A DNA stretch of 64,000 nt from a virus. Position 1 is the stretch's first letter, and each line of letters opens with the position of its first letter. This document shows positions 15,184-59,926 of this stretch, one piece after another. A program made the translations under genes and the position numbers. The notes under the pieces were generated by a model. The model saw only the letters and a program-made list of their open reading frames with translations. It was not told where the DNA came from and ran no database searches. Location of the stretch: positions 19,235 through 83,234 of the IMG/VR virus record IMGVR_UViG_3300038701_002504; one strand, written 5' to 3'.

Positions 15184-15185
15184 TT

Positions 15186-19537: not shown

Positions 19538-20164
19538 ATGAACAGTTTTAAACAATTTCTCGAAGAAGGTAGAGATGCTCCTTTATATCATGGGACTGAT
19601 ACTCATGCTGCAATTCAAATCATTGATGCCGATACACTCGAAGGAAGAACCGACAACCATTCAAGACTCGAGCCTTTAAATTCATGGGGCGAAAAGAAAA
19701 AAGAGTTAGTTGTAAATGTGAATCATTTCAAACCAAAAAAATATACAAAATTTAACGGTTCGTCTTTTTCTCGCGATATGAGGAGATCATTGCATTGGAG
19801 AGGCGGAGGACTGTGTTTTGAAGTAGATCAGAGAAAACTATCTCAAAGACATAAGTTAGTTCCTATCAACATCTTTATGGCTATGGGTTATAATAAACAT
19901 GCGAAGGACGAAGAACTTGCAGAAGAATTTGTGATTGGAGATATTAAAAACTTTAGACGATATATAACAAGAATCATATTTCTAAAAGAATGGGATTTAT
20001 CCACATTTTTATTAAATGCTCAATTCTCTTTAAACCCAGACAAACTTCTGGGTTTCAGATATTTTCTATATTCAGAAAAGAAAACATATGATGTAAAATC
20101 GAAAAAGGATTTTATTAATATGTTGAAAGATTTGAAAATTTATGAAAAGATTATGAATGGCTAA
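19538..20164 (+). CDS. EGRDAPLYH-family paralogue 1 (putative capsid-targeted ART-like protein)
   Basis: MNSFKQFLEEGRDAPLYHGT; SSFSRD; FEVDQRKL; LAEEFV. Confidence 0.65.
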   Translation: MNSFKQFLEEGRDAPLYHGTDTHAAIQIIDADTLEGRTDNHSRLEPLNSWGEKKKELVVNVNHFKPKKYTKFNGSSFSRDMRRSLHWRGGGLCFEVDQRKLSQRHKLVPINIFMAMGYNKHAKDEELAEEFVIGDIKNFRRYITRIIFLKEWDLSTFLLNAQFSLNPDKLLGFRYFLYSEKKTYDVKSKKDFINMLKDLKIYEKIMNG

Positions 20165-20609
20165 GTATAAACAAGGCGTCTTCAAACCGCTTAGACCAGA
20201 AAAATATAAGGGAGACCTTAAGAAGAACCCACCGGTGTATCGCTCAAGCTGGGAATTAAAGCTTATGGTCAAATTGGACAATCACCCTGACGTGATCCAG
20301 TGGTCATCAGAAGGTATCGTAATTCCCTATAAGTCTCCAATCGATAATAAGTATCATAGATATTTTGTGGATTTCTATGTTAAGTTAAAAGATAAAGATG
20401 GAAATATACAGGAAATGATTATTGAAGTTAAACCATTGGGCCAAGTTATGGAACCAAAAAGAAGAAAGAATCAACAGGATAGAACTTTTCTACGTGAAGT
20501 AATGACCTGGGGAGTGAACCAAGCAAAATGGGATGCTGCTCGCGCTGCTGCAAAAAATAAAGGATGGAAATTTGAAATATTCACAGAGGATGATCTTAAT
20601 GTCCTTTAA
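20157..20609 (+). CDS. gp4: Head completion nuclease (gp4-like)
   Basis: YKQGVFKP, YRSSWE, WSSE, HRYFVDF, IIEVKP, NQAKW. Confidence 0.9.
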   Translation: MAKYKQGVFKPLRPEKYKGDLKKNPPVYRSSWELKLMVKLDNHPDVIQWSSEGIVIPYKSPIDNKYHRYFVDFYVKLKDKDGNIQEMIIEVKPLGQVMEPKRRKNQQDRTFLREVMTWGVNQAKWDAARAAAKNKGWKFEIFTEDDLNVL

Positions 20610-21129
20610 ACAATTCCTAGAAGAAGGTAGAGATGCTCCTTTATATCATGTTACTCCATTGGATAACTTTTTTGATATAGCTATGTCAAATAGACTAAAT
20701 GCAAGTAATTTATGGACATATGGAGCTAAACCCACAGTATCATTTACTCGTAATTATAAATTTTGTTTCGAATTTGCCAGACAACATCTGGATACTGGAA
20801 CAGGCCAATTGAGAGATACGAAAGATATCGCAATACTTGAAATCGATCAAAGAAGACTTTCACAGAGATATAAGATTATTCCTTATAGAGATTTAATTAA
20901 TTTGGGTGATGGATCAAGACTACATTATAATGAATTTGAAGAATATATTCAGGGAGATGTGAAGAATGTAAGCGACTATATTATAAAAACTCATATACCC
21001 GCAAGAGAATATTGGCATTCAAACGATGTTGCGTTATCGTATAAAAAGAAATACAGGAGATTTATATCATTAGTAATGGACTTTAAACCCTGGGATACTA
21101 AATCAAGAAAGTTTATTGATGCCATATAG
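20599..21129 (+). CDS. EGRDAPLYH-family paralogue 2
   Basis: MSFKQFLEEGRDAPLYHVT; VSFTRN; LEIDQRRL; EFEEYI. Confidence 0.65.
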   Translation: MSFKQFLEEGRDAPLYHVTPLDNFFDIAMSNRLNASNLWTYGAKPTVSFTRNYKFCFEFARQHLDTGTGQLRDTKDIAILEIDQRRLSQRYKIIPYRDLINLGDGSRLHYNEFEEYIQGDVKNVSDYIIKTHIPAREYWHSNDVALSYKKKYRRFISLVMDFKPWDTKSRKFIDAI

Positions 21130-21628
21130 TTTCAAACAATTTCTTGAAGAGGGACGAGACGCTCCGTTATATCATAGCACTGCTTATCGTTCAGGTTGTA
21201 TCATCTTTGAAGATAATGAAATACGCGCGAGAACATATCATATCAAAAAGTCCATGTTAGATGATAAAGCAAAAATAAAAAAAGCGTTCTCCAAGCGTGT
21301 TTTTGGTGGCTCTGATGAATATGTTGATGGTGTTGCAGGTGTTTCACTAACTCGTAATTTTAAGTTTGCAAAATCCTGGGGTGATATAATATTTGAAGTA
21401 GATCAGAAAAGATTAACTCAAAGATATAAGATTATTCCATTTAACTATTTTGTTGACCAGAGCAGTAAACCCGCAAATTTTAGAAAAGAAGCAGAAGAAT
21501 TTGTAATTGGCAACATATTTCCTTTAAATAAATATCTTATAAAAATACATATAAGCGTTGATTATATGTCTGAATTTGAAGAACGATATGGAAATAAACT
21601 TAAAGGAATTGAAGTTGTTGGGGTTTAA
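21119..21628 (+). CDS. EGRDAPLYH-family paralogue 3
   Basis: MPYSFKQFLEEGRDAPLYHST; VSLTRN; FEVDQKRL; EAEEFV. Confidence 0.65.
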   Translation: MPYSFKQFLEEGRDAPLYHSTAYRSGCIIFEDNEIRARTYHIKKSMLDDKAKIKKAFSKRVFGGSDEYVDGVAGVSLTRNFKFAKSWGDIIFEVDQKRLTQRYKIIPFNYFVDQSSKPANFRKEAEEFVIGNIFPLNKYLIKIHISVDYMSEFEERYGNKLKGIEVVGV

Positions 21629-22121
21629 AGAATATTTATTAGAAGGACGAGATGCTCCTTTGTTTCATGGTTCGTCATCAGGCAATGTAAACAACATGCT
21701 TGAAGAGAATATGATATCCTCGGAAACACTCCAGAAGATTGACGGAAAAAACCTAAAAGGTGTATCTCTTACAAGATCATATAAATTTGCATTAACTCAT
21801 ATTGGTCCAGCTTCATTTAAGCATGGCTATGACGTAATACTTGAATTAGATCAAAGACTTCTTTCTCAGAACTATAAGATTATTCCTTTTAATTGGTCTC
21901 CATCGTGGAAAGGCCCGCCTAAAGCAAGATATATGGATGATCTAGGTTCAGAGTTTGAAGAATTTGTGGTCGGTCCTATTCGTAATTTGAATAAGTATAT
22001 TGTTAAAATACACGCATCACACGAAATCTATTATAATGCTTCACAGGAAACAAAAGATAGATCTTCATTTTTATTGAAACATCCTAAACTCTTTATTGAT
22101 AGAAAGTTTGTCAATGCTTAA
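21615..22121 (+). CDS. EGRDAPLYH-family paralogue 4 (TTG start inferred)
   Basis: GFKEYLLEGRDAPLFHGS; VSLTRS; LELDQRLL; EFEEFV; AAAGGA RBS at 21602. Confidence 0.62.
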   Translation: MLGFKEYLLEGRDAPLFHGSSSGNVNNMLEENMISSETLQKIDGKNLKGVSLTRSYKFALTHIGPASFKHGYDVILELDQRLLSQNYKIIPFNWSPSWKGPPKARYMDDLGSEFEEFVVGPIRNLNKYIVKIHASHEIYYNASQETKDRSSFLLKHPKLFIDRKFVNA

Positions 22122-22650
22122 TTTCAAACAATACTTGGAAGAAGGTAGAGATGCTCCTTTATATCATGCAACTGAGTACAGAGCTCTTTTGAATATTCTT
22201 ATAACGAATAAATTGGAAGCCCTGAATTATCATGAGTTTAATAGTAAAATAAAAAAGAAACATAGAAATTCCTGGGGTGATGTGAAGATTATATCATTTA
22301 CACGAAACATAAGATTTGCTAGAGCTTGGTTAAATCAATTAATGGGTTATGGACCTATACTTGAACTAGATCAGAGAAAACTTGCGCAGAGATATAAATT
22401 TGTTCCATTTAACTTTTTTTCCTATGGTGCTAGAGTCGACACCGATGAACTTGGTATAGACTATGATGGCGATTATGGTATGAATTTCCCATATAATCAA
22501 TTTGAGGAAAATGTGATAGGTGATATTAAGAACCTCGATAAATATTTAACTAAAATAATAGTTGTAGATGATAGATGGAAATCCGATAAAATAATATCGT
22601 CACATCCTCTTTTATATGATCTAAAAACGAAAAGGTTTATCAATGCTTAA
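22114..22650 (+). CDS. EGRDAPLYH-family paralogue 5 (QxE subtype)
   Basis: MLNFKQYLEEGRDAPLYHAT; ISFTRN; LELDQRKL; QFEENV. Confidence 0.65.
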   Translation: MLNFKQYLEEGRDAPLYHATEYRALLNILITNKLEALNYHEFNSKIKKKHRNSWGDVKIISFTRNIRFARAWLNQLMGYGPILELDQRKLAQRYKFVPFNFFSYGARVDTDELGIDYDGDYGMNFPYNQFEENVIGDIKNLDKYLTKIIVVDDRWKSDKIISSHPLLYDLKTKRFINA

Positions 22651-23149
22651 TTTTAAACAATTCCTAGAAGAAGGTAGAGATGCTCCTTTATATCACGGGA
22701 CTGATGCAACACTTAAAATTCTTGAGACAAATACATTGAAAGGTACACGCAGCCATTCATATCAGAGCCTGATGATTGATAAGGATGGAGAAGCAAAAGG
22801 AGTTTCTCTTACAAGAAACATAAAAGTAGCTTCACAGTTTCAAAAATGGGCTGATCACAGCAATTATGCAATCTTTGAGTTGGATCAGAAGAAACTTGCT
22901 CAGAATCATAAAATCATTCCTGTAAACTTCTGGGGAGCTCTGAAAGGTGAGCCCGCAAGATCAAAATCAATTCCAAAAGATGAAGTGGGTTCTGAATATG
23001 AAGAATTTGTGATGGGTGATATTAAGAACCTCGATAAATATATCATAAGAATATTCATTTTTAGTAAGAAGAGTAAGTTGTATGGAAAGCCGAATGTTCT
23101 TCTTGTAAAGAAGAACGATCTCATACTTGGAAAGCATAGAAGAAGATGA
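22643..23149 (+). CDS. EGRDAPLYH-family paralogue 6
   Basis: MLNFKQFLEEGRDAPLYHGT; VSLTRN; FELDQKKL; EYEEFV. Confidence 0.65.
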   Translation: MLNFKQFLEEGRDAPLYHGTDATLKILETNTLKGTRSHSYQSLMIDKDGEAKGVSLTRNIKVASQFQKWADHSNYAIFELDQKKLAQNHKIIPVNFWGALKGEPARSKSIPKDEVGSEYEEFVMGDIKNLDKYIIRIFIFSKKSKLYGKPNVLLVKKNDLILGKHRRR

Positions 23150-23703
23150 ACAGTTTTAAGCAATATTTGGAAGAAGGTCGAGCTGGGCCTCTGTATCATG
23201 CTACGAATGTCGATAGAGCTTCGTTTATTGTGGGTGATAATAAAATAATGGCTAAAACGATACATAAGTTAAAGCCAGATTATAGAACAATAAATGGTGT
23301 TTCTCTTACACGCGATTATAAATTTGCGATACATTTCGGTTTTCATGAAATGAGATATTTTACTCTTGTTATATTTGAACTTGATCAAGCAAAACTTTCT
23401 CAAAAATTTAAAATAATGCCAATCAATTATTATAACACAACATTTCCAATAGAACAAGGGTTTAGACCATATAAAGGTGCTAGAAGATCTCAAGGTCGTC
23501 ACCTGCTGGGTGATGAGAACAATGAATCGGAAGAGTTTGTGCTAGGTAATATAAAAGATGTATCAAAATATATTGTAAAAATTCATGTATGTTCTGACTT
23601 AACAAAGGAAAGAATAGATGAACATTATCCAAGACTGGCGAAACATCCTAAACTTTGGTTTGCTGAAAAGAATAACGAAAAAGGTTATTTCTACAATGCT
23701 TAA
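23146..23703 (+). CDS. EGRDAPLYH-family paralogue 7
   Basis: MNSFKQYLEEGRAGPLYHAT; VSLTRD; FELDQAKL; ESEEFV. Confidence 0.65.
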   Translation: MNSFKQYLEEGRAGPLYHATNVDRASFIVGDNKIMAKTIHKLKPDYRTINGVSLTRDYKFAIHFGFHEMRYFTLVIFELDQAKLSQKFKIMPINYYNTTFPIEQGFRPYKGARRSQGRHLLGDENNESEEFVLGNIKDVSKYIVKIHVCSDLTKERIDEHYPRLAKHPKLWFAEKNNEKGYFYNA

Positions 23704-24283
23704 TTTCAAACAATACTTGGAAGAAGGACGAGATGCTCCACTTTATCATACTACAGATGAATCTTATATGCGCTACATCATCGAAAAAAATTCAATAAAA
23801 GCGAAAACAGAACATCAAGTTGGTTATAGACCTGGTAATAGATCAGGTAATAAATGGAAAGATGTGATATCTCTTACACGTTCTATAAAATTTGCTCATC
23901 GTTGGGGAGAAAGAAAAGGTTCTGGTTATTATTTTATATTTGAACTAGATCAGAGAAAACTTTCTCAGAGACATAAATTTGTTCCCTATAACCATTTTGG
24001 CGATCATTATTATAATGACGAAAAAGGTGCAGCTCGTAGAATGAATGATGTTACTGATTTTAATTTTCCTATTAATCAATATGAGGAGAATATTATTGGA
24101 GATATCAAAAATTTAAATCAATATTTAACTAAAATAATATTATCCGAAAAATTATATAATGGATATTTTTCAGAAAAAAATTCAGATAGACAAGATGCAG
24201 TTATTAAATATGGAAAAGAAGTAGTGTATCATAAACTGTTATGGTATAATGGAAAATTCATCAATGCTCATTATTATAAGTAG
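23696..24283 (+). CDS. EGRDAPLYH-family paralogue 8 (QxE subtype)
   Basis: MLNFKQYLEEGRDAPLYHTT; ISLTRS; FELDQRKL; QYEENI. Confidence 0.65.
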   Translation: MLNFKQYLEEGRDAPLYHTTDESYMRYIIEKNSIKAKTEHQVGYRPGNRSGNKWKDVISLTRSIKFAHRWGERKGSGYYFIFELDQRKLSQRHKFVPYNHFGDHYYNDEKGAARRMNDVTDFNFPINQYEENIIGDIKNLNQYLTKIILSEKLYNGYFSEKNSDRQDAVIKYGKEVVYHKLLWYNGKFINAHYYK

Positions 24284-24289
24284 GAATCA

Positions 24290-24754
24290 ATGAATAACTT
24301 TAAACAATTCTTAGAAGAAGGTCGCGATGCTCCTTTATATCATGGAACATATGCTGAAGCAGCTGATGAAATTATAAAAGATAACACTATGATAGCCTAT
24401 ACAAATCACGGAAGAAAAGTAACTTCATTTTCTTATTATTCAAAAAATTTTAGAGGTAAAGTTGAGCAGGATGGCATATCTCTTACGCGTGATATTCGCT
24501 TTGCATGGTCGTGGAATGGACAAGTAGTATTTGAACTTGACCAAAGAAAGCTTGCGCAAACTCATAAGATTGTTCCCATTAAGATAGAAGGTGTTTTAAG
24601 AGGAAAAAATCGAAATGCTTTTATGCATATGGCAGAAGAATTTGTAATCGGACCTATTAAAAACTTTGATAAATACTTAATAAGAATTCATTTAAAAAAA
24701 GAATGGACTTATCCAGAATCTTTATTAAAACATCCTCTAATTAAGTGGCATTAA
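24290..24754 (+). CDS. EGRDAPLYH-family paralogue 9
   Basis: MNNFKQFLEEGRDAPLYHGT; ISLTRD; FELDQRKL; MAEEFV. Confidence 0.65.
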   Translation: MNNFKQFLEEGRDAPLYHGTYAEAADEIIKDNTMIAYTNHGRKVTSFSYYSKNFRGKVEQDGISLTRDIRFAWSWNGQVVFELDQRKLAQTHKIVPIKIEGVLRGKNRNAFMHMAEEFVIGPIKNFDKYLIRIHLKKEWTYPESLLKHPLIKWH

Positions 24755-25365
24755 TGACATCATTACTCTTTACAAAAGTATTAGAAAAAGCAGCAAGATC
24801 AGGAAACCCGAAATTCGGATCTGTTGAATTGCGAGATTTCCTGCGTGATAAAGCTTTGGCAGCTACATCTCGTAATGTGAGCAGTAAAAGATTCGTTGAG
24901 ACAAAGAAAGCAAAAGCAAATGTAGTCACAACAATCAAACCTGGAACAATGGTTTGTTATTTCTATGATGCGAAACATAAAGCTACATTACCATATTATG
25001 ATAAATTTCCAGTTGGATTTGTTATTGATGTTCAAAAAGATTATAATTTATTCTTAAATCTGCATTACTTACCGCCGATTTTTAGAGCTAGATTAATGGA
25101 TGCATTATACGATTTATTAAATAATCAAAAATATGACGACACTACAAAGCTTAAAATGTCATATGACATTTTAAGAAGTGCTGCTAAATTTAAATATTTT
25201 AAACCGTGTATAAAAAAACATTTACATAATCGAATACAAAGTCATATGATTCAAATAGATGTAAGAGAGTGGGATTATGTGGCATTTTTACCTTTAAATC
25301 GTTTTTCTGGTGCAAATCAAAGAAAAGTGTGGGATGACTCAATTAAGATCATTAATAAGTCTTGA
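24754..25365 (+). CDS. gp2: DNA end protector (gp2-like)
   Basis: PGTMVCYFYDAKHKATLPYYDKFP, LNLHYLPP, KPCIKKHL; TAATG coupling. Confidence 0.9.
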   Translation: MTSLLFTKVLEKAARSGNPKFGSVELRDFLRDKALAATSRNVSSKRFVETKKAKANVVTTIKPGTMVCYFYDAKHKATLPYYDKFPVGFVIDVQKDYNLFLNLHYLPPIFRARLMDALYDLLNNQKYDDTTKLKMSYDILRSAAKFKYFKPCIKKHLHNRIQSHMIQIDVREWDYVAFLPLNRFSGANQRKVWDDSIKIINKS

Positions 25366-26094
25366 TTTACACTTATCAAAATGCCATCTTAACATGATCC
25401 GACCACCTGATTTTAAACAATGTGGACATGTGTATGTTTTATTATGTGTTTCTGCTATAGCTTTCTTATGTTCAAATGTTTTAGGAACATTCTTAAGCTT
25501 TTTGCTAACTTTAATAGCATGTTCAGGTCTTTTCTTTCCATAAAATGGGTTTTTGTCCCCAGATTTTGATTCCGATAGTTTAAGTTTAGTTTTATCGCTA
25601 TGCTTTTTTCCATAAAAACCGTTTAAATTACCTATTTTCTTTTTGCCAGCTTTTGATAATTTTTCTTTTGTTTCATCATATAATATCCATCCTTTAACCC
25701 AATCATCCCCTGGACATTCTAAAGAAAGAGTATTTTTAACACCATTATTCCATCTTGATAAATCATTTATGTCTATACTATGAGAAGATGTTATATTTAA
25801 AAATTTTTTCCACATATTATATTTCCGTATCTTCTTTAAAAAATTATGCTCCCATAATTGAGCAGATTTAGCATCTTCAAACGTTTTTCTTATTTGTATA
25901 ATATCAGGCTCACCATATTTTTCTCTAAACATTTTCACATGTTTAGAGGAAGTAAAATATGTTTTCCATAAATCATCTGGGTGACATCCGCTATCATATA
26001 ATGAGCAAAATCTTTTAGCAGTTCTAACACCATAGTAAAATTTTTGGTGTTCGCTCCAGCCTATAAGATAAGTATAAGGTGTATAAATAGACAT
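25339..26094 (-). mobile_element. Free-standing GIY-YIG-like homing endonuclease with NUMOD3-type repeats
   Basis: YTYLIGW...FYYGVR...YFTSS N-domain; GKKHSDKTKLKLSESKSG and GKKRPEH repeats; Zn-knuckle CPHC...HFDKC. Confidence 0.7.
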
Positions 26095-26125
26095 ATCATA
26101 TTTCTCCTTCTTATAATGTATATAA

Positions 26126-26160
26126 TATTTATGATATTATGAAGAAAAGGATAATAAATA
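26126..26160. promoter_or_regulatory. Pair of late-promoter variants (CATAAATA on minus at 26126-26133; AATAAATA on plus at 26153-26160)
   Basis: Between the endonuclease and gp48, one on each strand. Confidence 0.5.
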
Positions 26161-26176
26161 TCATAAAAGGACTTAA

Positions 26177-27531: not shown

Positions 27532-28886
27532 TGGAAGCTTTAACACAGATTGAAGAAGTTGTTTTATACAAGTTTGGATATAATCCTATATCTTTAACAA
27601 ATGATTTCATAAACATTGCTCCACAGACTTTGGAAGTGAATATTTTTGACAGTATATTCTCACCTGTTGTGAGAGCAGAAATCGTGGTGAATGACGCAAT
27701 TGGTCTCTTTACTAACTTTCCTCTTACTGGTGAAGAGATTGTAAAGATATCAATTAAAAATGATGATTATAGCAGAACCGAATTCTTTGTAATTGATTTA
27801 ATTAAAGAAATTGAAATATCGGATGATAACAGAGTTGCAACCTATAATATGAATCTGGTAAGCATGGAATCATGGGCAAATGCTCGTAGAACAGTTCAGA
27901 AAGCATATAATATGCCTCTGATGGAGGCTGCTGGCGAAATTTATAATGAATACATTATTAAAGAATTAAAGAAAATTCTTCCATATTACGAACCAAAGCC
28001 ATTTAATGAAGGTTTATCTGATGAAAGCACGAAGCTCACAATCATACCAAACCTAAATCCATTTGCTGCAATCAATATGTTGGCTAAGTTGATTGAGCCT
28101 GCAAAGGATTCTCCTCTTACATCATATATGTTTTATCAGAACGTGGATGGATATCACCTGAAATCTTTACAGGAAATGTTTGATGATATGAGAGCATATG
28201 CGCAACGTAAGTTAGCTTATGAGAACAAATACAGATATACATCAGATGACATTCCAGGTAATGATAAATTCTCGAATGATGGGCGAATTGTTTCAAATAT
28301 TGTATTCAATAAGAGACATTCTCCTCTTCAGAAGATTCAACTGGGTTATTTTCAGAATAAATTATTTGAAATAAACATTGCTCAGAAGGGTTATCATATC
28401 ACTGAAACAAAACCTGATGAGATTGAACGAATTTCTGCGCATCGTCTAAATACAACAAAATATGAAGCACTCACTCCAATATTTGAAGGCGAAGAGTATT
28501 CAAACCGCACAAGATACGCAGTTACCACACAAAAAGAAAACGATCTCTCTTTTCCTGTATCGGAAAGAAGAAATCGTTGGGGTAGAGATTTGATATCTCA
28601 TATTGCAATGTCACAGATTGATTTGACTATCACAATTGATGGTAATCCTGATCTAAAACCAGGCGGATTGATTTATCTAGAAGTTGCAAAAGCACATGGC
28701 TTCAATGAGAATGAGGAAGACGATCTGATATCTGGTTATTTTCTTATAACAGAAAAAAGGGATGTTGTATCGCAAACTGGGCAATACAAATCATCCCTTC
28801 GAATTCAGAAAGATTCTTACGAATCAGATGTGAATAGACCTTCTGAATATAAAGTTGGTGTAGAGAAAGAATTATTCTATTTCTAG
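27531..28886 (+). CDS. Baseplate hub protein (gp27-like)
   Basis: Position after gp53; IFDSIFSP, PLTGEE, MFYQNVDGYHLKSL, IDGNPDLKPG, SGYFLI. Confidence 0.6.
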   Translation: MEALTQIEEVVLYKFGYNPISLTNDFINIAPQTLEVNIFDSIFSPVVRAEIVVNDAIGLFTNFPLTGEEIVKISIKNDDYSRTEFFVIDLIKEIEISDDNRVATYNMNLVSMESWANARRTVQKAYNMPLMEAAGEIYNEYIIKELKKILPYYEPKPFNEGLSDESTKLTIIPNLNPFAAINMLAKLIEPAKDSPLTSYMFYQNVDGYHLKSLQEMFDDMRAYAQRKLAYENKYRYTSDDIPGNDKFSNDGRIVSNIVFNKRHSPLQKIQLGYFQNKLFEINIAQKGYHITETKPDEIERISAHRLNTTKYEALTPIFEGEEYSNRTRYAVTTQKENDLSFPVSERRNRWGRDLISHIAMSQIDLTITIDGNPDLKPGGLIYLEVAKAHGFNENEEDDLISGYFLITEKRDVVSQTGQYKSSLRIQKDSYESDVNRPSEYKVGVEKELFYF

Positions 28887-29551
28887 TACGTAACTTTTAA
28901 GAACGTTGGGCAGTCACTTCTATTACAAACATATCCCATCACAGTTTGTAATGAAAGACCACATACTGAACAAGTACACGCACTTGTTTTATCATATGGT
29001 GGCCATGTAAATGGCGATGGAATACTTGGCGATGGAACAAGAGGCTTAATCTTCTTAGGTTTGTCTTTAATATCCATTACAACTTGATATATAGCATCCT
29101 CAAAGTTTTCTGTAATCAGAAGATGTTCCATATCATGATACTTCAAAGTTTCATAAACATTTGTGTAACGATAATATAATTCAGGACACCAAACAAGAAT
29201 TCTTTTATTTGAATTAATTGCTAAGCCAAGCTCGAGAAGAGTAATAGGACTTGTTGTATTCTCATCAAAGAAGAAAACAATTAGATCTGAGATTTCCTGA
29301 GCATTCAGCTCCCAATCAATCTGTTCACGAACTGCATCCACAGTTGCATCTGGATCCCAATTTTCTCTACGCGGATTAAAAATGATCACATTATCACCGA
29401 ATTTATTCTGTAGATTTTGTGCAAGAGATTTCTGCCAATTCTTTGCTCTGCCATTCTCAATTGAGCCAGCAAGAAAAACTTTTGTAGTGCTTTTTTCGTC
29501 ACAGGCTTTCATGGCCTTGAATGTTAATTTTGTTTCAGGTGTGAGTATCAT
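28883..29551 (-). CDS. Nucleoside 2-deoxyribosyltransferase-like protein with Cys-rich tail
   Basis: VFLAGSI, NPRRENWD, QIDWEL, SPITLLELG; C-terminal CTCSVC...CNRSDCP. Confidence 0.75.
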   Translation of the reverse strand: MILTPETKLTFKAMKACDEKSTTKVFLAGSIENGRAKNWQKSLAQNLQNKFGDNVIIFNPRRENWDPDATVDAVREQIDWELNAQEISDLIVFFFDENTTSPITLLELGLAINSNKRILVWCPELYYRYTNVYETLKYHDMEHLLITENFEDAIYQVVMDIKDKPKKIKPLVPSPSIPSPFTWPPYDKTSACTCSVCGLSLQTVMGYVCNRSDCPTFLKVTY

Positions 29552-30025: not shown

Positions 30026-30187
30026 CTTACTCTTCCTTTACTACTGCTTGAGCATACAAATCCCGGTAACCATTCGTATGCGATACCGAAACACCACCAT
30101 GTAATTTATATCCATAATCATTCACCCACATTAACACCTGTTTTTCCAGAGAAAGTGTGCTATATGCTGTTAATACACGATATTTCA

Positions 30188-30893: not shown

Positions 30894-30894
30894 T

Positions 30895-31848: not shown

Positions 31849-31874
31849 CAATAAATATCAATAAAAGGATAAAA

Positions 31875-35901: not shown

Positions 35902-35902
35902 A

Positions 35903-37075: not shown

Positions 37076-37462
37076 ATGAGACAAGTAATATACAGAGACC
37101 TTAAAAAGTCATTCGACAAACATCCTGTGAGTAATGATCTTCTCACAATATCCGAAGAGGATGCTGTAAAAGACTCTATTATGAATATTGTCTTCACATC
37201 TCCGTATGAGAGATATCGTAATCCAAGATTTGGCGCAGGAATTCCTGCTGATTTGTTTGAAAATTTGAGCCCACAGACCGAATACCAAGTAAAGAACCGT
37301 ATTGAGAATGCAATTAATACATACGAGCCACGTGCTATTCTTCAGAATGTTGCTGTTGCAGCAAATCTAGATCAGAATAATTATGTTGTGAGTATTCAAT
37401 TCCGCGTGAGAAACAGTTTTGAAATTATTACTGTACAGAATATTCTAAGGAGAATACGATGA
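37076..37462 (+). CDS. gp25: Baseplate wedge subunit (gp25-like)
   Basis: AVKDSIMNI..T..YER..NPRFG, INTYEPRA. Confidence 0.88.
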   Translation: MRQVIYRDLKKSFDKHPVSNDLLTISEEDAVKDSIMNIVFTSPYERYRNPRFGAGIPADLFENLSPQTEYQVKNRIENAINTYEPRAILQNVAVAANLDQNNYVVSIQFRVRNSFEIITVQNILRRIR

Positions 37463-37899
37463 CATTTAAAGAGTATCTAACAGAGCTATTCGACAGACCT
37501 GCCAAAATCTATACACTTGCTGATAATTTGACGGACAGGGAAGCCATATTCACTGTTGGAAATAACAAGTACAGTATATATTTAAGTAAGGAACCCATCA
37601 GAAAAATCGTATGGAACGTAACATTTGCTATTATAGAAATAGATGGTATGCCTGTGGGTGGTATAGATAGCATTAAAACAACAAATCTGAATGTTGATAA
37701 AAATGTTGTATTCGCAACAGTAATTAAGTTTATTGAGTCACATCACAGAAAAGAAGATACATATAAATTTACCACATGGAAGATTGAAAAGTCGCGCATT
37801 AGACTTTATGATACATTATCCAAAAGATTGGCAAAAAAATATAATATGAAAGTAGAGAAATCAGTATTTGGAAATGTTATTGAATGGCAATTGTCATAA
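37459..37899 (+). CDS. Putative capsid-targeted small protein
   Basis: MTFKEYLTELFD leader, resembling both the CTS motif and the T4 Alt N-terminal ITELFD. Confidence 0.45.
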   Translation: MTFKEYLTELFDRPAKIYTLADNLTDREAIFTVGNNKYSIYLSKEPIRKIVWNVTFAIIEIDGMPVGGIDSIKTTNLNVDKNVVFATVIKFIESHHRKEDTYKFTTWKIEKSRIRLYDTLSKRLAKKYNMKVEKSVFGNVIEWQLS

Positions 37900-49208: not shown

Positions 49209-49211
49209 TAA

Positions 49212-49544: not shown

Positions 49545-49545
49545 T

Positions 49546-50622: not shown

Positions 50623-50658
50623 TGAACACCAGAATTTTATATAAACAAGGAAACTAAA

Positions 50659-51189: not shown

Positions 51190-51199
51190 GGGGAACTAA

Positions 51200-52153: not shown

Positions 52154-52169
52154 TGAACAAGGAAAATCA

Positions 52170-53036: not shown

Positions 53037-53039
53037 CAA

Positions 53040-53561
53040 ATGACCAGCTACACACAAGCAGCGGCAGAAGTCCTTGGCCATAACGAATTCAGCGTCGAGA
53101 CGAAAGACGGCGTGCAGACAATCGTACTGTTTGCAGGTGGCAATCCCTCTTCGCAGCAAAAAGCTGACATCGACGCGCTTTGGCAGACCGATGCGTATCA
53201 GAACCCAGCTCCCTCATCTGATAACGTAAATACAGAACGCGAAAGAAGAATCATTGAAGGCACGCTTATCAATATTACAGGATACGGCGATGTTAATCTA
53301 GAAGGCAGAGCTATTGATAGAAGTAATCTATCTGATCTTGCATTTGCAGCTTCTCTTAGAATTTCAATAGGTGATACAACAACCACAACACCTTTTAGAG
53401 ATAAAGATAATGTTAGTCATGATCTAACACCTCCAAATATCATCGAACTCTGGACAAAGGCCAGTGCTTATGTATCTTTTCTTTATGAAAAATCATGGGA
53501 AATAAAAGCAATGGACCCTATTCCAGATGATTATACAGATGATAGTTACTGGAGTGTCTAA
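53040..53561 (+). CDS. Tail fibre assembly chaperone (DUF4376-like), second copy
   Basis: NVNTERERRI, FRDKDN, PIPDDYTDDSYW. Confidence 0.7.
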   Translation: MTSYTQAAAEVLGHNEFSVETKDGVQTIVLFAGGNPSSQQKADIDALWQTDAYQNPAPSSDNVNTERERRIIEGTLINITGYGDVNLEGRAIDRSNLSDLAFAASLRISIGDTTTTTPFRDKDNVSHDLTPPNIIELWTKASAYVSFLYEKSWEIKAMDPIPDDYTDDSYWSV

Positions 53562-53908
53562 TGAGCCTTTACACAAACAAACTTCCAGTTGTTGCTCTTG
53601 GCGACAACACTTATATGACTGATATGCCTATCATCTGGGAAATCGGTAGAAAAGGTTCGGGCTTGAGATATATAGTTCCAGCAGGTTTTAGGTTTGATGT
53701 TTCAATTCCCAAGCTATTTCAGTGGGCATTCAATCCCAACGACAAACGATTTCTGAAAGCCGCCGCCCTACATGATCACATGCTTGTAAATGAATGGTCA
53801 CGTATTGAAGCCGCCGCCGTCTTTCATGAAGCATTGAAAGCCGATCAAGTTGAAAAGTGGAAGAGATTTTCAATGTTTATAGCAGTTGTTATCTGGAAAT
53901 ATAAATAA
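53561..53908 (+). CDS. DUF1353-like protein
   Basis: VPAGFRFDVSIP, KAAALHDHML, FHEALK. Confidence 0.75.
   Translation: MSLYTNKLPVVALGDNTYMTDMPIIWEIGRKGSGLRYIVPAGFRFDVSIPKLFQWAFNPNDKRFLKAAALHDHMLVNEWSRIEAAAVFHEALKADQVEKWKRFSMFIAVVIWKYK
53900..53907 (+). promoter_or_regulatory. Late promoter TATAAATA
   Basis: Exact consensus upstream of 53924/gp13. Confidence 0.7.
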
Positions 53909-53923
53909 AATAAAGGAAACAAA

Positions 53924-54181
53924 ATGGCACGCAAACCAAAAACTCAAAAAACAGAAGATTTTATCTTTCCTAAAAGAGATGAAAAACGTAAAACCGAAGT
54001 AACAACATTACCGCTTACAGGTGAAGAAGTTCTTGTTCTCCTAAATAAGAAGGGCTTGAAAACTGGTAAATCTTTGGATGATAAATTGACAAAAACCGCA
54101 ATCAAATTTTTCCAAAAAACAAACGGTTTAAAAATTACTTCTGATATAAATGACGAAACTCTGGCCAAATTGAAAGGCTAA
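53924..54181 (+). CDS. Stand-alone peptidoglycan-binding-domain protein
   Basis: LLNKKGL...TKTAIKFFQKTNGLKITSDINDETLAKL (PG_binding_1 pattern). Confidence 0.65.
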   Translation: MARKPKTQKTEDFIFPKRDEKRKTEVTTLPLTGEEVLVLLNKKGLKTGKSLDDKLTKTAIKFFQKTNGLKITSDINDETLAKLKG

Positions 54182-54184
54182 TAT

Positions 54185-54934
54185 ATGTCAACATCGCGTC
54201 CTGCAACACGAGCTGAATTTAAAGAATTTATGCTTAGACAGCTTGGTAAACCTGTTATTGAAATCAATGTGGATAATGACCAAGTTGAGGACGCTGTAGA
54301 AATTGCTCTTTCATATTATATAGACCATCACTTCGATGGAGCATTTCCTACTTTTCTTAAATTACAGCTAACTGCTGATAATGTTGCAAATGGTTATATC
54401 GACATACCTGAAGAAGTCGTTGCAATTCGTCGTGTAATGCCTCTGGGTGGTTCTTCTGGCATATCAAATATATTCTCATATGATTATCAATTTACACAAT
54501 CATTAAGCAATGAATTAGCTTCTTCATATTCACTCATTCCATATTTTACAATGAGAATGCAATATGAACAGATTCAGGAAATGTTAATTGGTCAGTTTCC
54601 AATCCGTTATTCTAAACATTTTAATAAGCTTTATCTGGATTGTAATAAATCTAAATTGGCTGAGGGTAATTATATTGTTGCTGAAGCCTATACAGCTATC
54701 AATCCAGAAACACAAACAGATATATGGAATGATAGAATTCTTCAAAGACATGCGACAGCATTATTGAAGAAAACATGGGGACAGAGCATGTCTAAATATG
54801 AAGGTGTACAACTACCTGGTGGTCTCACAATGAATGGTCGACAAATATACGATGATGCTATCACCGAATTGCAACAAATTGAAGATGACTACATTACGAA
54901 TTATTCGCTTCCACCGGAAGATTTGATAATGTAG
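54185..54934 (+). CDS. gp13: Neck protein (gp13-like)
   Basis: LRQLGKPVIEINVD.DQVED, KKTWGQ..SKYEGVQLPGGLTMNG. Confidence 0.92.
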   Translation: MSTSRPATRAEFKEFMLRQLGKPVIEINVDNDQVEDAVEIALSYYIDHHFDGAFPTFLKLQLTADNVANGYIDIPEEVVAIRRVMPLGGSSGISNIFSYDYQFTQSLSNELASSYSLIPYFTMRMQYEQIQEMLIGQFPIRYSKHFNKLYLDCNKSKLAEGNYIVAEAYTAINPETQTDIWNDRILQRHATALLKKTWGQSMSKYEGVQLPGGLTMNGRQIYDDAITELQQIEDDYITNYSLPPEDLIM

Positions 54935-56378
54935 GACTTTTGTCCACAATCGTAAATTTTCTTCCAGCCTCTATCTCTCATATAAGAATCTTCTGTTTCG
55001 TCTTCTTTTATATCCACAAATTTATGTCTTTGGGTTTGATATCTTGAAAGAGTTTGTATTCCGTTGTGATTTTTCCACCATATATATGATGGCGGACTAG
55101 TTTTAAAGAAAGAAAACCCATTTTTTTCATAAGAATTTCCAGAGAAAAATCTTCTTTGTGTATATGATATAATAGATTTTTCTGGATGATTTTTAATAAA
55201 ATGATTTAAGAGTTTACTCATTCCTCCAATAACTATTGTATCTTTTAACGAACACATTCTATGTAATTCATAATCAAAACTTTTATTATATCTAGATTTA
55301 CCAAATGTGAGAAGATACACAAGCTCATCCTGTAAATACAATCCATAGCAAATTGAACTACCCGCATTATATCCCTGTATATGATTATCATTTAAAAACT
55401 GTTTATAAGATTTTACTTCTTTAATAACACAATTTCTAGCATATATTTTTCTCTGGTTTAGATTACAATGAGATTTGATCATACTTTTTATAATATCAAA
55501 TTTTTGCCCATCCATAATCTCATGTTCCATAAGGTGAATTAATCTAATTCCCTTTTCTTCACATAATTTAGTTTTGTTTAAATGATATTCTTTATTGTCT
55601 GAGTGCCAATTTAGTCCATTTACTTCTATGGCTAATTTTTTACTTGGAATATAGAAATCTAATTCTAATGGAGATATAACTTTTCTTATATTTGAAACAA
55701 AATCAATATTTAATTCCTTTAGAAATTCTTTCATTCTAAATTCTGGTTCAGATCTGTTTCGTGGAAGTTTAACTCCATTTTCACGAAGATTTTCACATAT
55801 GTAACTTCTGCTAAGTCCCAATTCATCTGATAACATTGAACTTGTATATTTCTTATCTACTTTATCCTGAACCCATTCTTCATTTGATAATAATTCTAAA
55901 GAAGTTTTGTTATTAGAACTCCATTTATTTTTTATTAATCTTTTGAATCTTTCAGATATATATATTCATTCGTATATGTTTTCTGTACATAATCGCCAAA
56001 TAGTGAAGATCCTATCTTACATATATCATCAAGTCTCATATCAGTATTTTCATATAGATGAATACAATGTTGAAAATTTTCTTCAAATTTTTTAAGTTTT
56101 TTTTCACGTCTCCTATCATTGGCAGATGACCCGAAATTATATTTTCTACAATTAATACTGCATGTTTCTGAATAACCGCCATTATAGAATTTTAGATTAT
56201 TACCGCAATGGCACTTTGGTGGTGTCTCAGCATCTATTGAAGCTAAATAAATAGATTCACGTATATCTAGACCTTGATAGTTATTTGGTATATCTTCATC
56301 CATTATTAGGGAAATCTTTTTACTTGATACTCTTTTCTTATTGCGTTTAAGTTCTACACACTCAAAAAATGAATTCAT
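54901..56378 (-). pseudogene. PD-(D/E)xK (Hef/DUF559-like) homing endonuclease split by a frameshift at (AT)5, 55956-55965
   Basis: 5' ORF has Zn finger PKCHCGNNLKF..CS..C; 3' ORF has ELDFYIP..LAIEVNGLNWH; deleting one AT unit joins them into a 491-aa frame. Confidence 0.7.
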
Positions 56379-56401
56379 TCTAAACCCTTATTTCAATATA
56401 T

Positions 56402-56426
56402 TATAAATAATCATATAATATTTATA
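56402..56426. promoter_or_regulatory. Two exact late promoters: plus 56402-56409 (gp14) and minus 56419-56426 (endonuclease)
   Basis: TATAAATA and TATTTATA. Confidence 0.7.
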
Positions 56427-56443
56427 AGGAAATGTACATATAG

Positions 56444-57073
56444 ATGGCCACAAATAGTTACTTTAACCAATTCAGCTCAAATACAGAACAAACTCTCATT
56501 GAAAATCTCATTGTAGAGGCGATCAAAATTTATGGTCATGATATGTATTATCTTCCACGTACTGGTGTGAATAAAGATGCTACTCTGAATGAATGGGAAT
56601 ACAGTGAATTTAATACAGCTCTACCATGTGAATTCTATATTAAGTCAAGTTCTTCATTCGAAGGGCAGGGTCAGCTTCTTGAAAAATTTGGCTTACAGAT
56701 TAAAGATCAATTAACTCTGCAAATTTCTGTTCGTTCTTTTAATGAATTTATTAAACCTACAACAGGTGAAGAAAGACCTTTGGAAGGTGATTTGATCTAC
56801 ATCCCAATGATTAAAGCTCTTTATGAAGTGAATTATCTGGACAAAGCTGTAACATTCTTTCAATTGGGATCTCTTCAGAGTTATGACATTGTTCTAGAAC
56901 TTTATGAATCAAACAATGATAAATTTGCCACAGGCATCGCTGCGATAGATGACACTTACAATGCTATAAACAATATTGTAAATGATCCATTTGATCAGGG
57001 CGACAACCTGGAGACAGAAGGCGAGACCGTTCTGGACTTTACTGAGAAGAATCCGTTTACAGATTTATACTAG
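56444..57073 (+). CDS. gp14: Neck protein (gp14-like)
   Basis: EQTLIENLIVEAIKIYG.DMYYLPR, KFGLQIKD, RPLEGDLIY, FTEKNPF. Confidence 0.92.
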   Translation: MATNSYFNQFSSNTEQTLIENLIVEAIKIYGHDMYYLPRTGVNKDATLNEWEYSEFNTALPCEFYIKSSSSFEGQGQLLEKFGLQIKDQLTLQISVRSFNEFIKPTTGEERPLEGDLIYIPMIKALYEVNYLDKAVTFFQLGSLQSYDIVLELYESNNDKFATGIAAIDDTYNAINNIVNDPFDQGDNLETEGETVLDFTEKNPFTDLY

Positions 57074-57350
57074 GTTTCGCTTTTAAAATTGGTGGTATTA
57101 AAGAAAAAATTTCACCTTTAGGTTTTGTCATAGGTTGATGATTTATGATTAGAAAAATTGTCTGTGATGATACAACTTCACACTTCTCCATTATTTCTTG
57201 AATACGTCTCTTTGGAATATCATAATGAGGTTTATCTCCTCCATGATACCAACAACGTTTAATATTTAGTATGCGTGCCATTTCATGTAGATTTTCCACA
57301 GAATATGGCACGCATACTAAATGTCGTTTATTGTCGCAATAGAATTTCAC
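57057..57350 (-). CDS. DUF4031-like protein
   Basis: RHLVC..SVENLHEMA...WYH...PHYDIP. Confidence 0.6.
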   Translation of the reverse strand: MKFYCDNKRHLVCVPYSVENLHEMARILNIKRCWYHGGDKPHYDIPKRRIQEIMEKCEVVSSQTIFLIINHQPMTKPKGEIFSLIPPILKAKPSINL

Positions 57351-57583
57351 AGAAAACTCATGTAATACTTTGATCCATTATAAACTTCATCTCGCATGAA
57401 TTCGGGAAGCGTAATAAGAAACTCCTCAACATACATTGTATCAATCATATCTTCAACATTTTGAAAATCGGTATTCCTATTGTTGATAAGATACATTGCA
57501 ACTGCATATCGGCATTTTTCTGTGGTTTCAATTTCATCAACCGAATCGAAATCCATGAATACATATTTTTGCAGATCTTCCAT
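57347..57583 (-). CDS. Hypothetical acidic protein
   Basis: Start moved to MEDLQ, downstream of the promoter and GGAG RBS. Confidence 0.55.
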   Translation of the reverse strand: MEDLQKYVFMDFDSVDEIETTEKCRYAVAMYLINNRNTDFQNVEDMIDTMYVEEFLITLPEFMRDEVYNGSKYYMSFL

Positions 57584-57612
57584 TTCATATCTCCATTTGT
57601 TCCGATAAGAAT

Positions 57613-57640
57613 AATATACACTATTTCTCAACAATGTAAA
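57613..57640 (-). promoter_or_regulatory. Early promoter TTTACA-N16-TATATT
   Basis: 26-nt identity with the promoter at 1781-1806. Confidence 0.7.
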
Positions 57641-57641
57641 C

Positions 57642-57649
57642 TATAAATA
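57642..57649 (+). promoter_or_regulatory. Late promoter TATAAATA
   Basis: Exact consensus upstream of gp15. Confidence 0.75.
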
Positions 57650-57669
57650 AATAAAAAATAGGATTTATT

Positions 57670-58458
57670 ATGGCATCAACATCACCGGGTTATTTTTATC
57701 ATTCGTTAATTAAAAAAGCTATCCAAATTTTTGGTAGCAGGTTTAATGACATCCAGATCAAGAGAATGAACACTGATGATACAGTTGAGCAGACTTTATC
57801 AGTTCCTATCCAATATGGTCCTATTCAGAAATATCTAGCTCGTATACAGGGTGATAGAGATAACAAAAGAAATGTGAATGCGATCTTTCCTCGTATGGCA
57901 TTTGAAATAACGGGTTTTCAACGAGATGCATTAAGAAAAATAAATCCAACTGAAAAATTAAATTATGGTGTAAATAGCGGTTATGTTCCAGTTCCATATG
58001 ATATTCAATTTCAGCTAAATGTAGTAAGCATTAATGCTGAGGATGGTCTGAAGATTGTTGAACAGATTATTCCATATTTTAACCCACAACTTGGTCTATC
58101 TGCCAAACTGATGGACGGATATGATAAAGTTTTTAATATTCCACTTGTATTAGATTCTGTAAATATGACAGATACATATGAAGGTGACTTTATGTCCAGA
58201 AGAGCCATCATATGGCAATTGGATTTCACATTAAAATATTATTTCATTGGTCCGGTTACAGAATCTAAGTTGATTAAGTTTGTAAAGGTGAATACATACT
58301 CAACTCCTGAAATGGATGAGATTGATGAATTTTACACAGCACAACCAGGTCTTACTGCGAATGGACAGCCTACAACTGACATTAATGAAACGGTTGCTTA
58401 TACATTGATTAATGAGGACGATGATTATGGATTTATTTTTCAAAGGAATCCTGAATGA
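57670..58458 (+). CDS. gp15: Tail sheath stabiliser/terminator (gp15-like)
   Basis: YFYHSLIKK..FG..FNDI, VPIQYGP.QK, PRMAFEI, VPVPYDI, EQIIPYFNP. Confidence 0.92.
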   Translation: MASTSPGYFYHSLIKKAIQIFGSRFNDIQIKRMNTDDTVEQTLSVPIQYGPIQKYLARIQGDRDNKRNVNAIFPRMAFEITGFQRDALRKINPTEKLNYGVNSGYVPVPYDIQFQLNVVSINAEDGLKIVEQIIPYFNPQLGLSAKLMDGYDKVFNIPLVLDSVNMTDTYEGDFMSRRAIIWQLDFTLKYYFIGPVTESKLIKFVKVNTYSTPEMDEIDEFYTAQPGLTANGQPTTDINETVAYTLINEDDDYGFIFQRNPE

Positions 58459-59012
58459 ATAGCTTTAAACAATTCCTAGAAGAAGGTCGCGATGCTCCTT
58501 TATATCATGCATTATACGATGAATATGCTGTTTCAGCGATAAAACACAATCATCTTTTAGCTAAATCTGTGCATAATATAAAGTTGGATATCAAACAGAA
58601 TAGACTTAACAGATTTAGAGAAGCAAAAGTTATATCCCTCACCAGAAATTTAAGATTTGCTCTGAGATGGGCCGGCGGTGGAAGAGTTGATGGAGAATAT
58701 AAAGTAATTTTCGAATTAGATCAAAGAAAACTAACTCAAAATTATAAACTTATTTCATATAACTTCTTTGCTAATTATGGAAAACATCCAACAAGAAAAG
58801 GTGATAATGAATTAGGGATGGATGAATATAACTTTCCAAAAAATCAATATGAAGAATCAATAATTGGTGATGTAAAAAATTTAAATAAATATTTAACAAA
58901 AATAATGTTTGTTGATGTTTCAAATGTTAAAAAAGAAAACGAATATATGAAAATACTATTGAAACACCCACTAGCATGGGATATGAAAACAAAAAGGTTT
59001 ATAAATGGCTAA
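58455..59012 (+). CDS. EGRDAPLYH-family paralogue 10 (QxE subtype)
   Basis: MNSFKQFLEEGRDAPLYHAL; ISLTRN; FELDQRKL; QYEESI. Confidence 0.65.
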   Translation: MNSFKQFLEEGRDAPLYHALYDEYAVSAIKHNHLLAKSVHNIKLDIKQNRLNRFREAKVISLTRNLRFALRWAGGGRVDGEYKVIFELDQRKLTQNYKLISYNFFANYGKHPTRKGDNELGMDEYNFPKNQYEESIIGDVKNLNKYLTKIMFVDVSNVKKENEYMKILLKHPLAWDMKTKRFING

Positions 59013-59421
59013 TGATCCAGTCTATGACAAATTAAATTTGAGACCTATATCAAACAAGTCTATTGAATTGGTGCCTCTTGATAAAAACAAAGGCGAACAA
59101 CTTTCAGATGATTTAGATGAAGCTCGCACAAATACGAGACATCTTATCAATGTCGGTGAAGAAGCTTTGAAAGAACTTCAGGATCTTTCGTCACAATCTC
59201 AAGATCCAAAGGCATATAGAGAACTTTCTGTTCTGATCAAAGTGATGTTAGATGCAAATAAATCACTTGTTGATACCGCGCGAGCTAGAAAAGAAATCGT
59301 CGTTGATGCGGATAAAGTTGTGAGTGATAATCCACAAACAGTTACAAATAATCTTTATGTTGGAACTACAACAGACGCTGTTGATATTCTTAAACAGAAG
59401 AGATCTATAAAAGATGACTAG
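59005..59421 (+). CDS. gp16: Terminase small subunit (gp16-like)
   Basis: PKAYRELSVLIK, VTNNLYVGTT; position before gp17. Confidence 0.8.
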   Translation: MANDPVYDKLNLRPISNKSIELVPLDKNKGEQLSDDLDEARTNTRHLINVGEEALKELQDLSSQSQDPKAYRELSVLIKVMLDANKSLVDTARARKEIVVDADKVVSDNPQTVTNNLYVGTTTDAVDILKQKRSIKDD

Positions 59422-59926
59422 TTTTAAACAATTTCTTGAAGAAGGTCGCGATGCTCCTTTATATCATGCCACGAGACTTGATAATATAGATAGCATTATT
59501 CAAGCCGGTTTAAAACCTACTTCATCCCACTTCAGAAAAAAGCTAGGTTTAAATAGAAAAGAAAATGATTCTACTTCAACTCATGGAATATCATTTACAA
59601 GAGATTTTAAAATAGCTCATAGATATGGCCAACATTATTTTGTTCAAAGATCATATGTTATATTTAAATTTGATCAGAGAAAACTTACACAAAGATATAA
59701 ATCTATTCCTGTTGATTATTTTTCTGATATGAGATCTAAAAAGATTTATGACAAAAGTAATCCAGATTTAAGCACTCGTAGATTTTTTGAAGCTGAAAAA
59801 TTTATCATAACGAAAAATCCCATACCATTATCATTTGCGACAGAAATATTTGTTCCTCAGGATATATCTGAACAATATTTAAAACTAATACAAGATACAC
59901 ATTTGAAAGTAACATATTTTAAATGA
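59414..59926 (+). CDS. EGRDAPLYH-family paralogue 11
   Basis: MTSFKQFLEEGRDAPLYHAT; ISFTRD; FKFDQRKL; EAEKFI. Confidence 0.65.
   Translation: MTSFKQFLEEGRDAPLYHATRLDNIDSIIQAGLKPTSSHFRKKLGLNRKENDSTSTHGISFTRDFKIAHRYGQHYFVQRSYVIFKFDQRKLTQRYKSIPVDYFSDMRSKKIYDKSNPDLSTRRFFEAEKFIITKNPIPLSFATEIFVPQDISEQYLKLIQDTHLKVTYFK

Follow-up and report, generated by a model that had tools for sequence, protein, structure and literature searches.

A multi-copy family of leader-bearing proteins with a predicted ADP-ribosyltransferase fold and conserved E, Q and L subfamilies in a T4-like myovirus

Head-packaged ADP-ribosyltransferases (ARTs) encoded near morphogenesis genes represent a described theme in myoviruses (PMC9503650), and the Alt protein of phage T4 is packaged in the head, processed by a protease and injected (PMC9026906, PMC9503650). 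Enzymes of the ARTD type lack the X-X-phi-X-X-E/Q-X-E motif that gives specificity in the ARTC class (PMC11281641), and the DNA-modifying enzymes DarT1 (150-QxE-152) and DarT2 (158-QxE-160) (PMC11281641) target guanine and thymine, respectively, despite the QxE motif present in both, specificity being conferred by N104 or H119 where the loop begins (PMC11543638, PMC11281641). In the present study, a 64 000-nucleotide stretch of viral DNA (positions 19,235 to 83,234 of IMG/VR record IMGVR_UViG_3300038701_002504; referred to here as the window) was analysed with respect to 11 paralogous genes (designated paralogues 1 through to 11) encoding proteins of 154–208 aa. The window was taken from a 109.5-kb IMG/VR contig of a T4-like myovirus, which is uncultured and known as a contig only. 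The reading favoured here, to which a probability of roughly 0.55 is assigned, is that these genes encode injected ART-fold enzymes, in which the E, Q and L/M states of the first residue of an [E/Q/L]-x-E motif mark approximately eight anciently separated and conserved specificity classes.

Structure predictions using AlphaFold2 (AF2) were obtained for paralogue 6 (E-type; predicted local distance difference test score (pLDDT) of 86 and predicted template modelling score of 0.82) and paralogue 5 (Q-type; pLDDT of 88), and both models displayed the same topology. Strand 1 carries the sequence L-Y-H-G-T, and strand 2 (S-x-[ST]-R across the family) terminates in S-x-T, after which come a helix and two further strands; a low-confidence loop then leads to a strand that starts at E120 and possesses a hairpin partner (residues are numbered throughout according to paralogue 6: H18, S55, T57, R58, P93, N95, E118, E120 and E121). 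The ART triad, consisting of H/R on strand 1, Y/S on strand 2 and E/D/Q on strand 5, is represented by H18, S55 (with T/S57) and E120 on the corresponding predicted strands. Each of the two models was compared exhaustively with 48 161 PDB chains, and all 50 matches listed per model were ART-superfamily folds with a split β-sheet (best Z-scores of 9.8 and 10.2). The top listed matches were DarT proteins of M. tuberculosis and Thermus (Z 9.7–10.2, 139–159 residues aligned), next to KptA/Tpt1 (Z 8.8–9.1), DarT1 (Z 8.6) and DarTG (Z 8.4–8.8), with heat-labile enterotoxin, pertussis toxin, Scabin and diphtheria toxin being placed lower among the listed matches (Z 5–7). Foldseek ranked DarT1 first. 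The Q-type model did not rank DarT1 or ScARP higher, the order of its matches being the same as that of the E-type model.

A sequence profile of 138 family members retrieved a single significant match among PDB sequences, i.e. DarT1 (8baq, E 0.004), while a profile built from the 11 paralogues retrieved a ribosomal match only, which was dismissed as a chance hit. Weak Pfam matches across the 138 members all corresponded to ART families (PARP 8, Tpt1 5, DarT 2 and ART-PolyVal 1), and ESM Atlas neighbours comprised unnamed viral clusters and one named DarT/PARP. The DarT model (PF14487) was matched at E<1 by two of the 138 members, with paralogue 11 as the best paralogue at 12.2 bits (cut-off, 22.5 bits); the weak matches of this paralogue were to Pfam DarT (E 0.009) and to an NCBIfam RNA 2′-phosphotransferase (E 0.001). 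According to these models, the paralogues have an ART fold. The sequence-only reading had viewed them in the frame of cholera-toxin-like ARTs, which could not be upheld: His and not Arg occupies strand 1 in all but one of the 198 members, and DarT, Tpt1/KptA and DarT1 are closest in structure.

The position of KptA/Tpt1 among the top listed matches (Z 7.1–9.1), together with the NCBIfam match of paralogue 11 and the five members weakly matching Pfam PTS_2-RNA, would be compatible with Tpt1/KptA-like RNA 2′-phosphotransferases acting in tRNA repair. This explanation is considered highly improbable: only the NAD+ lobe of these enzymes (approximately residues 91–180) was matched, the phage proteins are too short to include an N-terminal RNA lobe, and a housekeeping function in repair is at odds with the presence of twelve divergent leader-bearing copies within late operons. 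Moreover, within the H-H-h clade, transferases such as DarT have an invariant strand-5 Glu and Tpt1 does not, which also counts against such a role.

To place the paralogues within a wider family, the profile from the 11 copies was compared with 1.8 billion proteins, yielding 2,382 representative clusters at E<1e-3. All named clusters are annotated as ‘hypothetical’ and none contains a Pfam domain. The sole cultured-phage relative found by protein search was from Bacillus phage SP-15 (36 % identity), and a nucleotide search of the gene array against cultured phages gave no match. Family members are basic (median isoelectric point of 9.4), and the paralogues appear, on balance, to belong to an unannotated family of small (150–210 aa), basic proteins of T4-like myoviruses with a predicted ART fold.

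Residue conservation was assessed across 198 single-domain members, comprising the window paralogues and their metagenomic relatives. R58 and E120 were present in all 198 members, and H18, S55 and E121 in 197 each. In line with the sequence-only reading, the motif reads EFE, EAE, EFE, EYE, ESE and EAE in paralogues 2, 3, 4, 6, 7 and 11, QFE, QYE and QYE in paralogues 5, 8 and 10, and LAE and MAE in paralogues 1 and 9, and paralogues 5, 8 and 10 have the NFPxNQ and GD[IV]KNL..YLTKI sequences in common. The same reading had pointed to the Glu of ExE as the invariant one, which the family-wide counts bear out (198/198, compared with 197/198 for the Glu that follows), the distinction resting on the single sequence of paralogue 11. 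This E-to-K change is private to paralogue 11, since its orthologue P0047 still has EE. At position 118, E was found in 135 members, Q in 38, L in 22, M in two and W in one (n=198); N occupies position 95 in 130 members, with Q, D, S or E in the remainder. A twelfth paralogue, located outside the window approximately 5.2 kb upstream of its start (G000:C1:14045-14638), is of the E-type (SEFEER) with A at position 95. The metagenomic protein P0067 is the sole member with Arg on strand 1 (APLYR); it is of the Q-type (NFPVNQYEEN) and therefore reads R...S-x-T...QxE, as in ARTC enzymes.

The AF2 models place the [E/Q/L]-x-E motif at the junction between a hypervariable loop and strand 5, of which E120 is the first residue. 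Profile alignment with DarT1 matches H18 to the strand-1 His, T57 to S63, and P93-x-N95 to P-T-N104, S63 of DarT1 being at the position of ‘Y’ in H-Y-E and N104 being the Asn that reads guanine (PMC11543638). The stretch spanning residues 94–119, which measures 12–41 residues across the family and 18–36 residues in the window, corresponds to the ADP-ribosylating turn-turn (ARTT) loop, which opens with the P-x-N turn. Because the motif lies at the end of this loop, with E120 as the start of strand 5, as it does in known ARTs, the catalytic Glu is likely to be E120.

The sequence-only reading had used the rule that ExE accompanies Arg acceptors, and QxE Asn, Cys, Thr or guanine, as a frame for acceptor specificity. 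This rule belongs to the ARTC class (PMC11281641) and is not directly transferable to a family with a strand-1 His and DarT/Tpt1 as its nearest structures. E/Q-x-E is found in nine of the 11 paralogues and L/M-x-E in two, and the aromatic residue of the NFPxNQ types precedes Q by four residues, not three. That DarT1 and DarT2 have different acceptors despite their identical QxE favours a role for the beginning of the loop no smaller than that of the motif. E-types may target Arg, other protein side chains or also nucleic acids.

For eight of the 11 paralogues, a relative in another phage (50–75 % identity) was closer than any copy within the same genome (38–50 %), and the relatives of these eight keep the same loop-end motif. 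The nearest relative of paralogue 1 elsewhere is P0070 (53 %), with the same KDEELAEEF; relatives of paralogue 4 (56–58 %) retain SEYEEF; and P0158, P0166, P0163 and P0157 share FPYNQFEEN, EVGSEYEEF, NNESEEF and FPINQYEEN with paralogues 5 (66 %), 6 (75 %), 7 (60 %) and 8 (66 %), respectively. K95 and HMAEEF of paralogue 9 are retained in P0160 (55 %), and P0047 (50 %) keeps D95 and FEAE of paralogue 11, reading FEAEEY. The closer relationship to relatives in other phages with the same loop ends indicates that the copies are old, separately conserved orthologous groups. Mixed sets were also observed on other contigs, such as IMGVR_UViG_3300007289_000010, which holds at least 13 members, including two Q-types and one L-type. 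The earlier proposal of a split into at least three functional subtypes stands in so far as conserved subfamilies are marked by the E, Q and L states; three is too few, however, since the conserved units are about eight orthologous groups that differ in their loop ends, and the E/Q/L division summarizes these classes only roughly.

The state at position 118 was shown to co-vary with positions 96, 97, 100, 114–117, 122, 53 and 62, i.e. positions predicted to lie near the active site. L-types carry a Lys four residues upstream in 23 of 25 cases, and Q-types are characterized by [FW]-P-x-N-Q or F-[DE]-N-Q, as well as by a small residue at position 122. The pairing of G53/F122 versus [VI]53/[NAS]122 gave a raw Fisher p of 1e-21, which fits packing of strand 2 against strand 5. 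When the loop columns were excluded from tree building, the states at position 118 were clustered, requiring 17 changes compared with 58 in shuffles, and 11 compared with 47 on a second tree.

The family is characterized by a 10-residue leader, M-x-x-F-K-Q-[FY]-[LI]-x-E, of which F4, [FY]7, [LI]8 and E10 are present in 11 of 11 copies, E10 being present in 137 of 138 members family-wide. In the T4 capsid-targeting sequence (CTS), residues 4 and 7 determine targeting, while residues 8 (L/I) and 10 (E) determine processing at the L/I-X-E site of gp21 (PMC9026906); the comparison was made with these mapped determinants and not with the exact T4 leader sequence. A gp21-type prohead protease is encoded on the contig (Peptidase_S77, G000:C1:89368-89808, E 3e-39), the paralogue genes sit in late structural operons, and TATAAATA boxes resembling the T4 late promoter precede paralogue 1 and the gp15-like gene. 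The leader, the gp21-type protease and the late-operon position suggest head packaging and injection.

The metagenomic protein P0001 (2,290 aa) consists of seven tandem domains, each with [LI]-x-E directly before GRDAPLYH, and P0017 and P0019 are similar polyproteins; judging by these sites, the polyprotein units look as if they are released by a prohead-type protease. In P0002, P0004 and P0007, x-A and not [LI]-x-E lies ahead of GRD. The same leader (e.g. MINFKEFLNE and MTFKEYLTE) is found on ORFs that do not belong to the family, at 276-1775 and 37459-37899 of the window and, outside the window, at G000:C1:13070 and 86658; the C-terminal half of the 499-aa ORF among these matched the family profile faintly (E 0.002).

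Under the proposed mechanism, the proteins would be made late and packed in the head, and the leader would probably be cut by the gp21-type protease to give a mature start of G-R-D-A-P-L-Y-H. Following injection with the DNA, they would ADP-ribosylate host molecules using host NAD+ or NAD+ replenished by the phage, with E120 polarizing NAD+ and the loop and residues 95 and 118 selecting and positioning the acceptor. The presence of several conserved specificity classes would imply that the copies are not redundant.

A number of results weigh against this explanation. A phylogeny-aware independent-pairs test of the covariation yielded three to five pairs (p about 0.1–0.5) and is underpowered; with so few supported contrasts, the covariation may reflect shared ancestry. 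A quick tree requires 10 changes for the Q state. On the other side, in favour of the explanation, approximately unbiased (AU) tests did not reject a single clade for the Q set (p 0.61) or the L set (p 0.94), and since the constrained trees outscored the free quick tree in likelihood, the 10–17 switches obtained with FastTree and quick IQ-TREE are unreliable. In a possible, though less probable, alternative, the proteins are active ARTs and residue 118 is a lineage marker tied to local packing (53/122), such that all act on the same kind of acceptor on different targets, which are chosen elsewhere in the loop or protein. Besides the failed independent-pairs test, the absence of a specificity-giving E/Q-x-E motif from ARTD-type enzymes (PMC11281641), the differing acceptors of DarT1 and DarT2 (PMC11543638, PMC11281641) and the single-nucleotide distance between E and Q (GAA/CAA) are in its favour. 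However, orthologous groups show no change of state at position 118 even where identity falls to 50 %, mixed sets are maintained by several phages, and the L-types drop the polar residue and gain the upstream Lys, which resembles a re-built site and not drift.

Further points also weigh against the favoured explanation. In scans of the paralogues against Pfam, PHROG and NCBIfam, no curated model reached its cut-off. The likely assignment of E120 as the catalytic Glu rests on predicted topology and invariance and not on residue-level superposition, and residue 118 lies in a stretch with a pLDDT of approximately 51–69. The C-terminal half of the HMMER alignment to DarT1 was rejected as a guide to the catalytic residue, as it pairs E121 with a loop Glu and not with E152, probably because the loops differ in length. 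E121, the second Glu immediately after the putative catalytic one, is itself kept throughout the family except in paralogue 11, and we know of no counterpart for it in known ART motifs. The TATAAATA box occurs 13 times in the window, compared with 9.6 expected matches, and is therefore not above chance.

The same lack of a curated ART model at cut-off, the loss of E121 in paralogue 11 and the basic nature of the members would suit non-transferases, i.e. head-internal, DNA-associated proteins in which an ART-like shell serves NAD+/ADP-ribose binding, NAD+ hydrolysis or, as in T4 IPI*, defence inhibition, with the loops acting as binding surfaces. The T4 internal proteins, which are diverse defence inhibitors with only the CTS in common, provide a precedent (PMC3012670). 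Such a role is rated as rather improbable, since the strict invariance of H18, S55, R58 and E120 over 198 divergent members is the pattern of a catalytic site and not of a scaffold, and since NAD+ salvage genes and a Macro gene are present in the same phage.

The features of the locus are listed in Table 1. The 11 paralogue genes are marked by 11 sites for a degenerate DNA pattern of EEGRDAPLYH in the window, all on the + strand, compared with none in shuffled sequences. The sequence-only reading had assigned the paralogues to a span of 19538–59926; they are confined to 19538–24754 and 58455–59926, the remainder consisting mostly of unrelated structural genes. Paralogues 1–9 surround a gp4-like gene and are flanked by baseplate and tail-tube genes on one side and a gp2-like gene on the other, while paralogues 10 and 11 bracket the gp16-like small terminase gene in the interval from the gp15-like to the gp17-like gene. 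No DarG macrodomain or NADAR antitoxin was found beside the paralogues, the adjoining genes being structural.

The phage with the 12 ART-like genes also encodes two NAD+ supply routes (PnuC with a NadR-like protein, and NAMPT with NMNAT-Nudix) and a Macro-domain protein. The gp2-like gene at the end of the array is immediately followed by a homing-endonuclease-like gene on the opposite strand (25339-26094, − strand; phrog_314, E 1e-13), and a nucleoside 2-deoxyribosyltransferase-like protein is encoded among the baseplate genes (28883-29551, − strand; PF15891, E 2e-28).

Table 1. Coordinates of the paralogues and of associated features in the window
Feature	Coordinates	Strand	Remarks
Paralogue 1, LAE, 208 aa	19538..20164	+	L-type loop end KDEE-LAE-EF; motif codons 19916-19924
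Paralogue 2, EFE, 176 aa from ATG 20599	20599..21129	+	ORF open from 20533; R95 in place of N
Paralogue 3, EAE, 169 aa	21119..21628	+	
Paralogue 4, EFE, 177 aa	21588..22121	+	Deviant leader GFKEYLLE; start codon uncertain (ATG 21588 or TTG 21609-21618)
Paralogue 5, QFE, 178 aa	22114..22650	+	Q-type NFPYN-QFE-EN; motif codons 22498-22506 (CAA TTT GAG)
Paralogue 6, EYE, 168 aa	22643..23149	+	Numbering reference
Paralogue 7, ESE, 185 aa	23146..23703	+	36-residue ARTT-like loop, longest in the window
Paralogue 8, QYE, 195 aa from ATG 23696	23696..24283	+	Q-type NFPIN-QYE-EN
Paralogue 9, MAE, 154 aa	24290..24754	+	K at position 95
Paralogue 10, QYE, 185 aa	58455..59012	+	Q-type NFPKN-QYE-ES; between gp15-like and gp16-like genes
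Paralogue 11, EAE then K, 170 aa	59414..59926	+	GAA GCT GAA AAA; D95; between gp16-like and gp17-like genes
PnuC and NadR-like gene	2828-4526		NAD+ supply
NAMPT and NMNAT-Nudix	11048..13467	+	NAD+ salvage
Macro-domain protein	15171..15638	+	Possible ADP-ribose eraser; PF01661, E 1e-10; ~4 kb upstream, sole Macro gene
T4 late-promoter-like box TATAAATA	19496..19503	+	35 nt upstream of paralogue 1
gp4-like head completion gene	20157..20609	+	Inside array; phrog_218, E 5e-54
gp2-like DNA end protector	24745..25365	+	Closes array; phrog_429, E 4e-45

Head-packaged ARTs are already known, as in the case of T4 Alt (PMC9503650); the present family, however, lacks a Pfam, PHROG or NCBIfam model, comprises approximately 2,400 representative clusters in metagenomes and forms arrays of up to 12–13 copies. 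If the classes do differ in acceptor, they would represent a natural series for how a minimal DarT-like ART scaffold is retargeted, and phages would deploy multiplexed ADP-ribosylation of nucleic acids or proteins on entry. A bolder version, which we regard as rather unlikely, is that of an injected arsenal of a dozen DarT/KptA-like ARTs in about eight classes, in which some, with QxE and P-x-N, would ADP-ribosylate bases of host DNA or RNA and others would modify proteins, fuelled by phage NAD+ salvage and checked by the Macro protein. If such a base-modifying arsenal exists, a phage would be employing for attack the chemistry with which bacteria defend themselves in DarTG.

Compared with T4 internal proteins IPI–III, the family shares a 10-residue leader with aromatic residues at positions 4 and 7 and L/I-x-E at positions 8–10, as well as diverse mature parts, late expression and a gp21-type protease. 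It differs in that the mature parts belong to one conserved enzyme-like family, known from genes alone, and not to unrelated small proteins. ARTC enzymes (C3, iota and ScARP; T4 Alt, ModA and ModB) appear to resemble the family in their S-x-[ST] on strand 2 and [E/Q]-x-E at the junction of the loop and strand 5, whereas the strand-1 His, the Z-scores of just 5–7 (LT, PT and Scabin), a size far smaller than that of Alt, and the L or M as first motif residue of two paralogues set the family apart. The NAD+ lobe of Tpt1/KptA, with L-[FY]-H-G-T on strand 1, is likewise similar (Z 7.1–9.1, root-mean-square deviation of 2.0–3.1 Å over 87–106 residues), but the family, with its multiple leader-bearing copies and invariant strand-5 Glu, lacks the RNA-binding N-lobe, only chain residues ~91–180 of these enzymes being matched.

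The most extensive likeness is to DarT1 and DarT2 (7omv, 7yk3 and 8baq), with Z-scores of 8.6–10.2 over 139–159 residues and a strand-1 His in both. In contrast to DarT, family members score below the Pfam cut-off (12 versus 22.5 bits), have an ARTT loop of 18–36 residues in the window versus 44, mostly carry ExE or LxE, possess the additional invariant E121 and R58, and are encoded by a phage in 12 copies with a capsid-targeting leader and no adjacent DarG/NADAR antitoxin; a counterpart of the DarT proton-relay Arg (R51/R52) was not identified in the family. The Q-types appear to share with DarT1 the His, a small hydroxyl residue on strand 2 (as S63), P-x-N and Q-x-E, an equivalence based on the profile alignment at E 0.004, and by this analogy modification of nucleic-acid bases is most plausible for this type.

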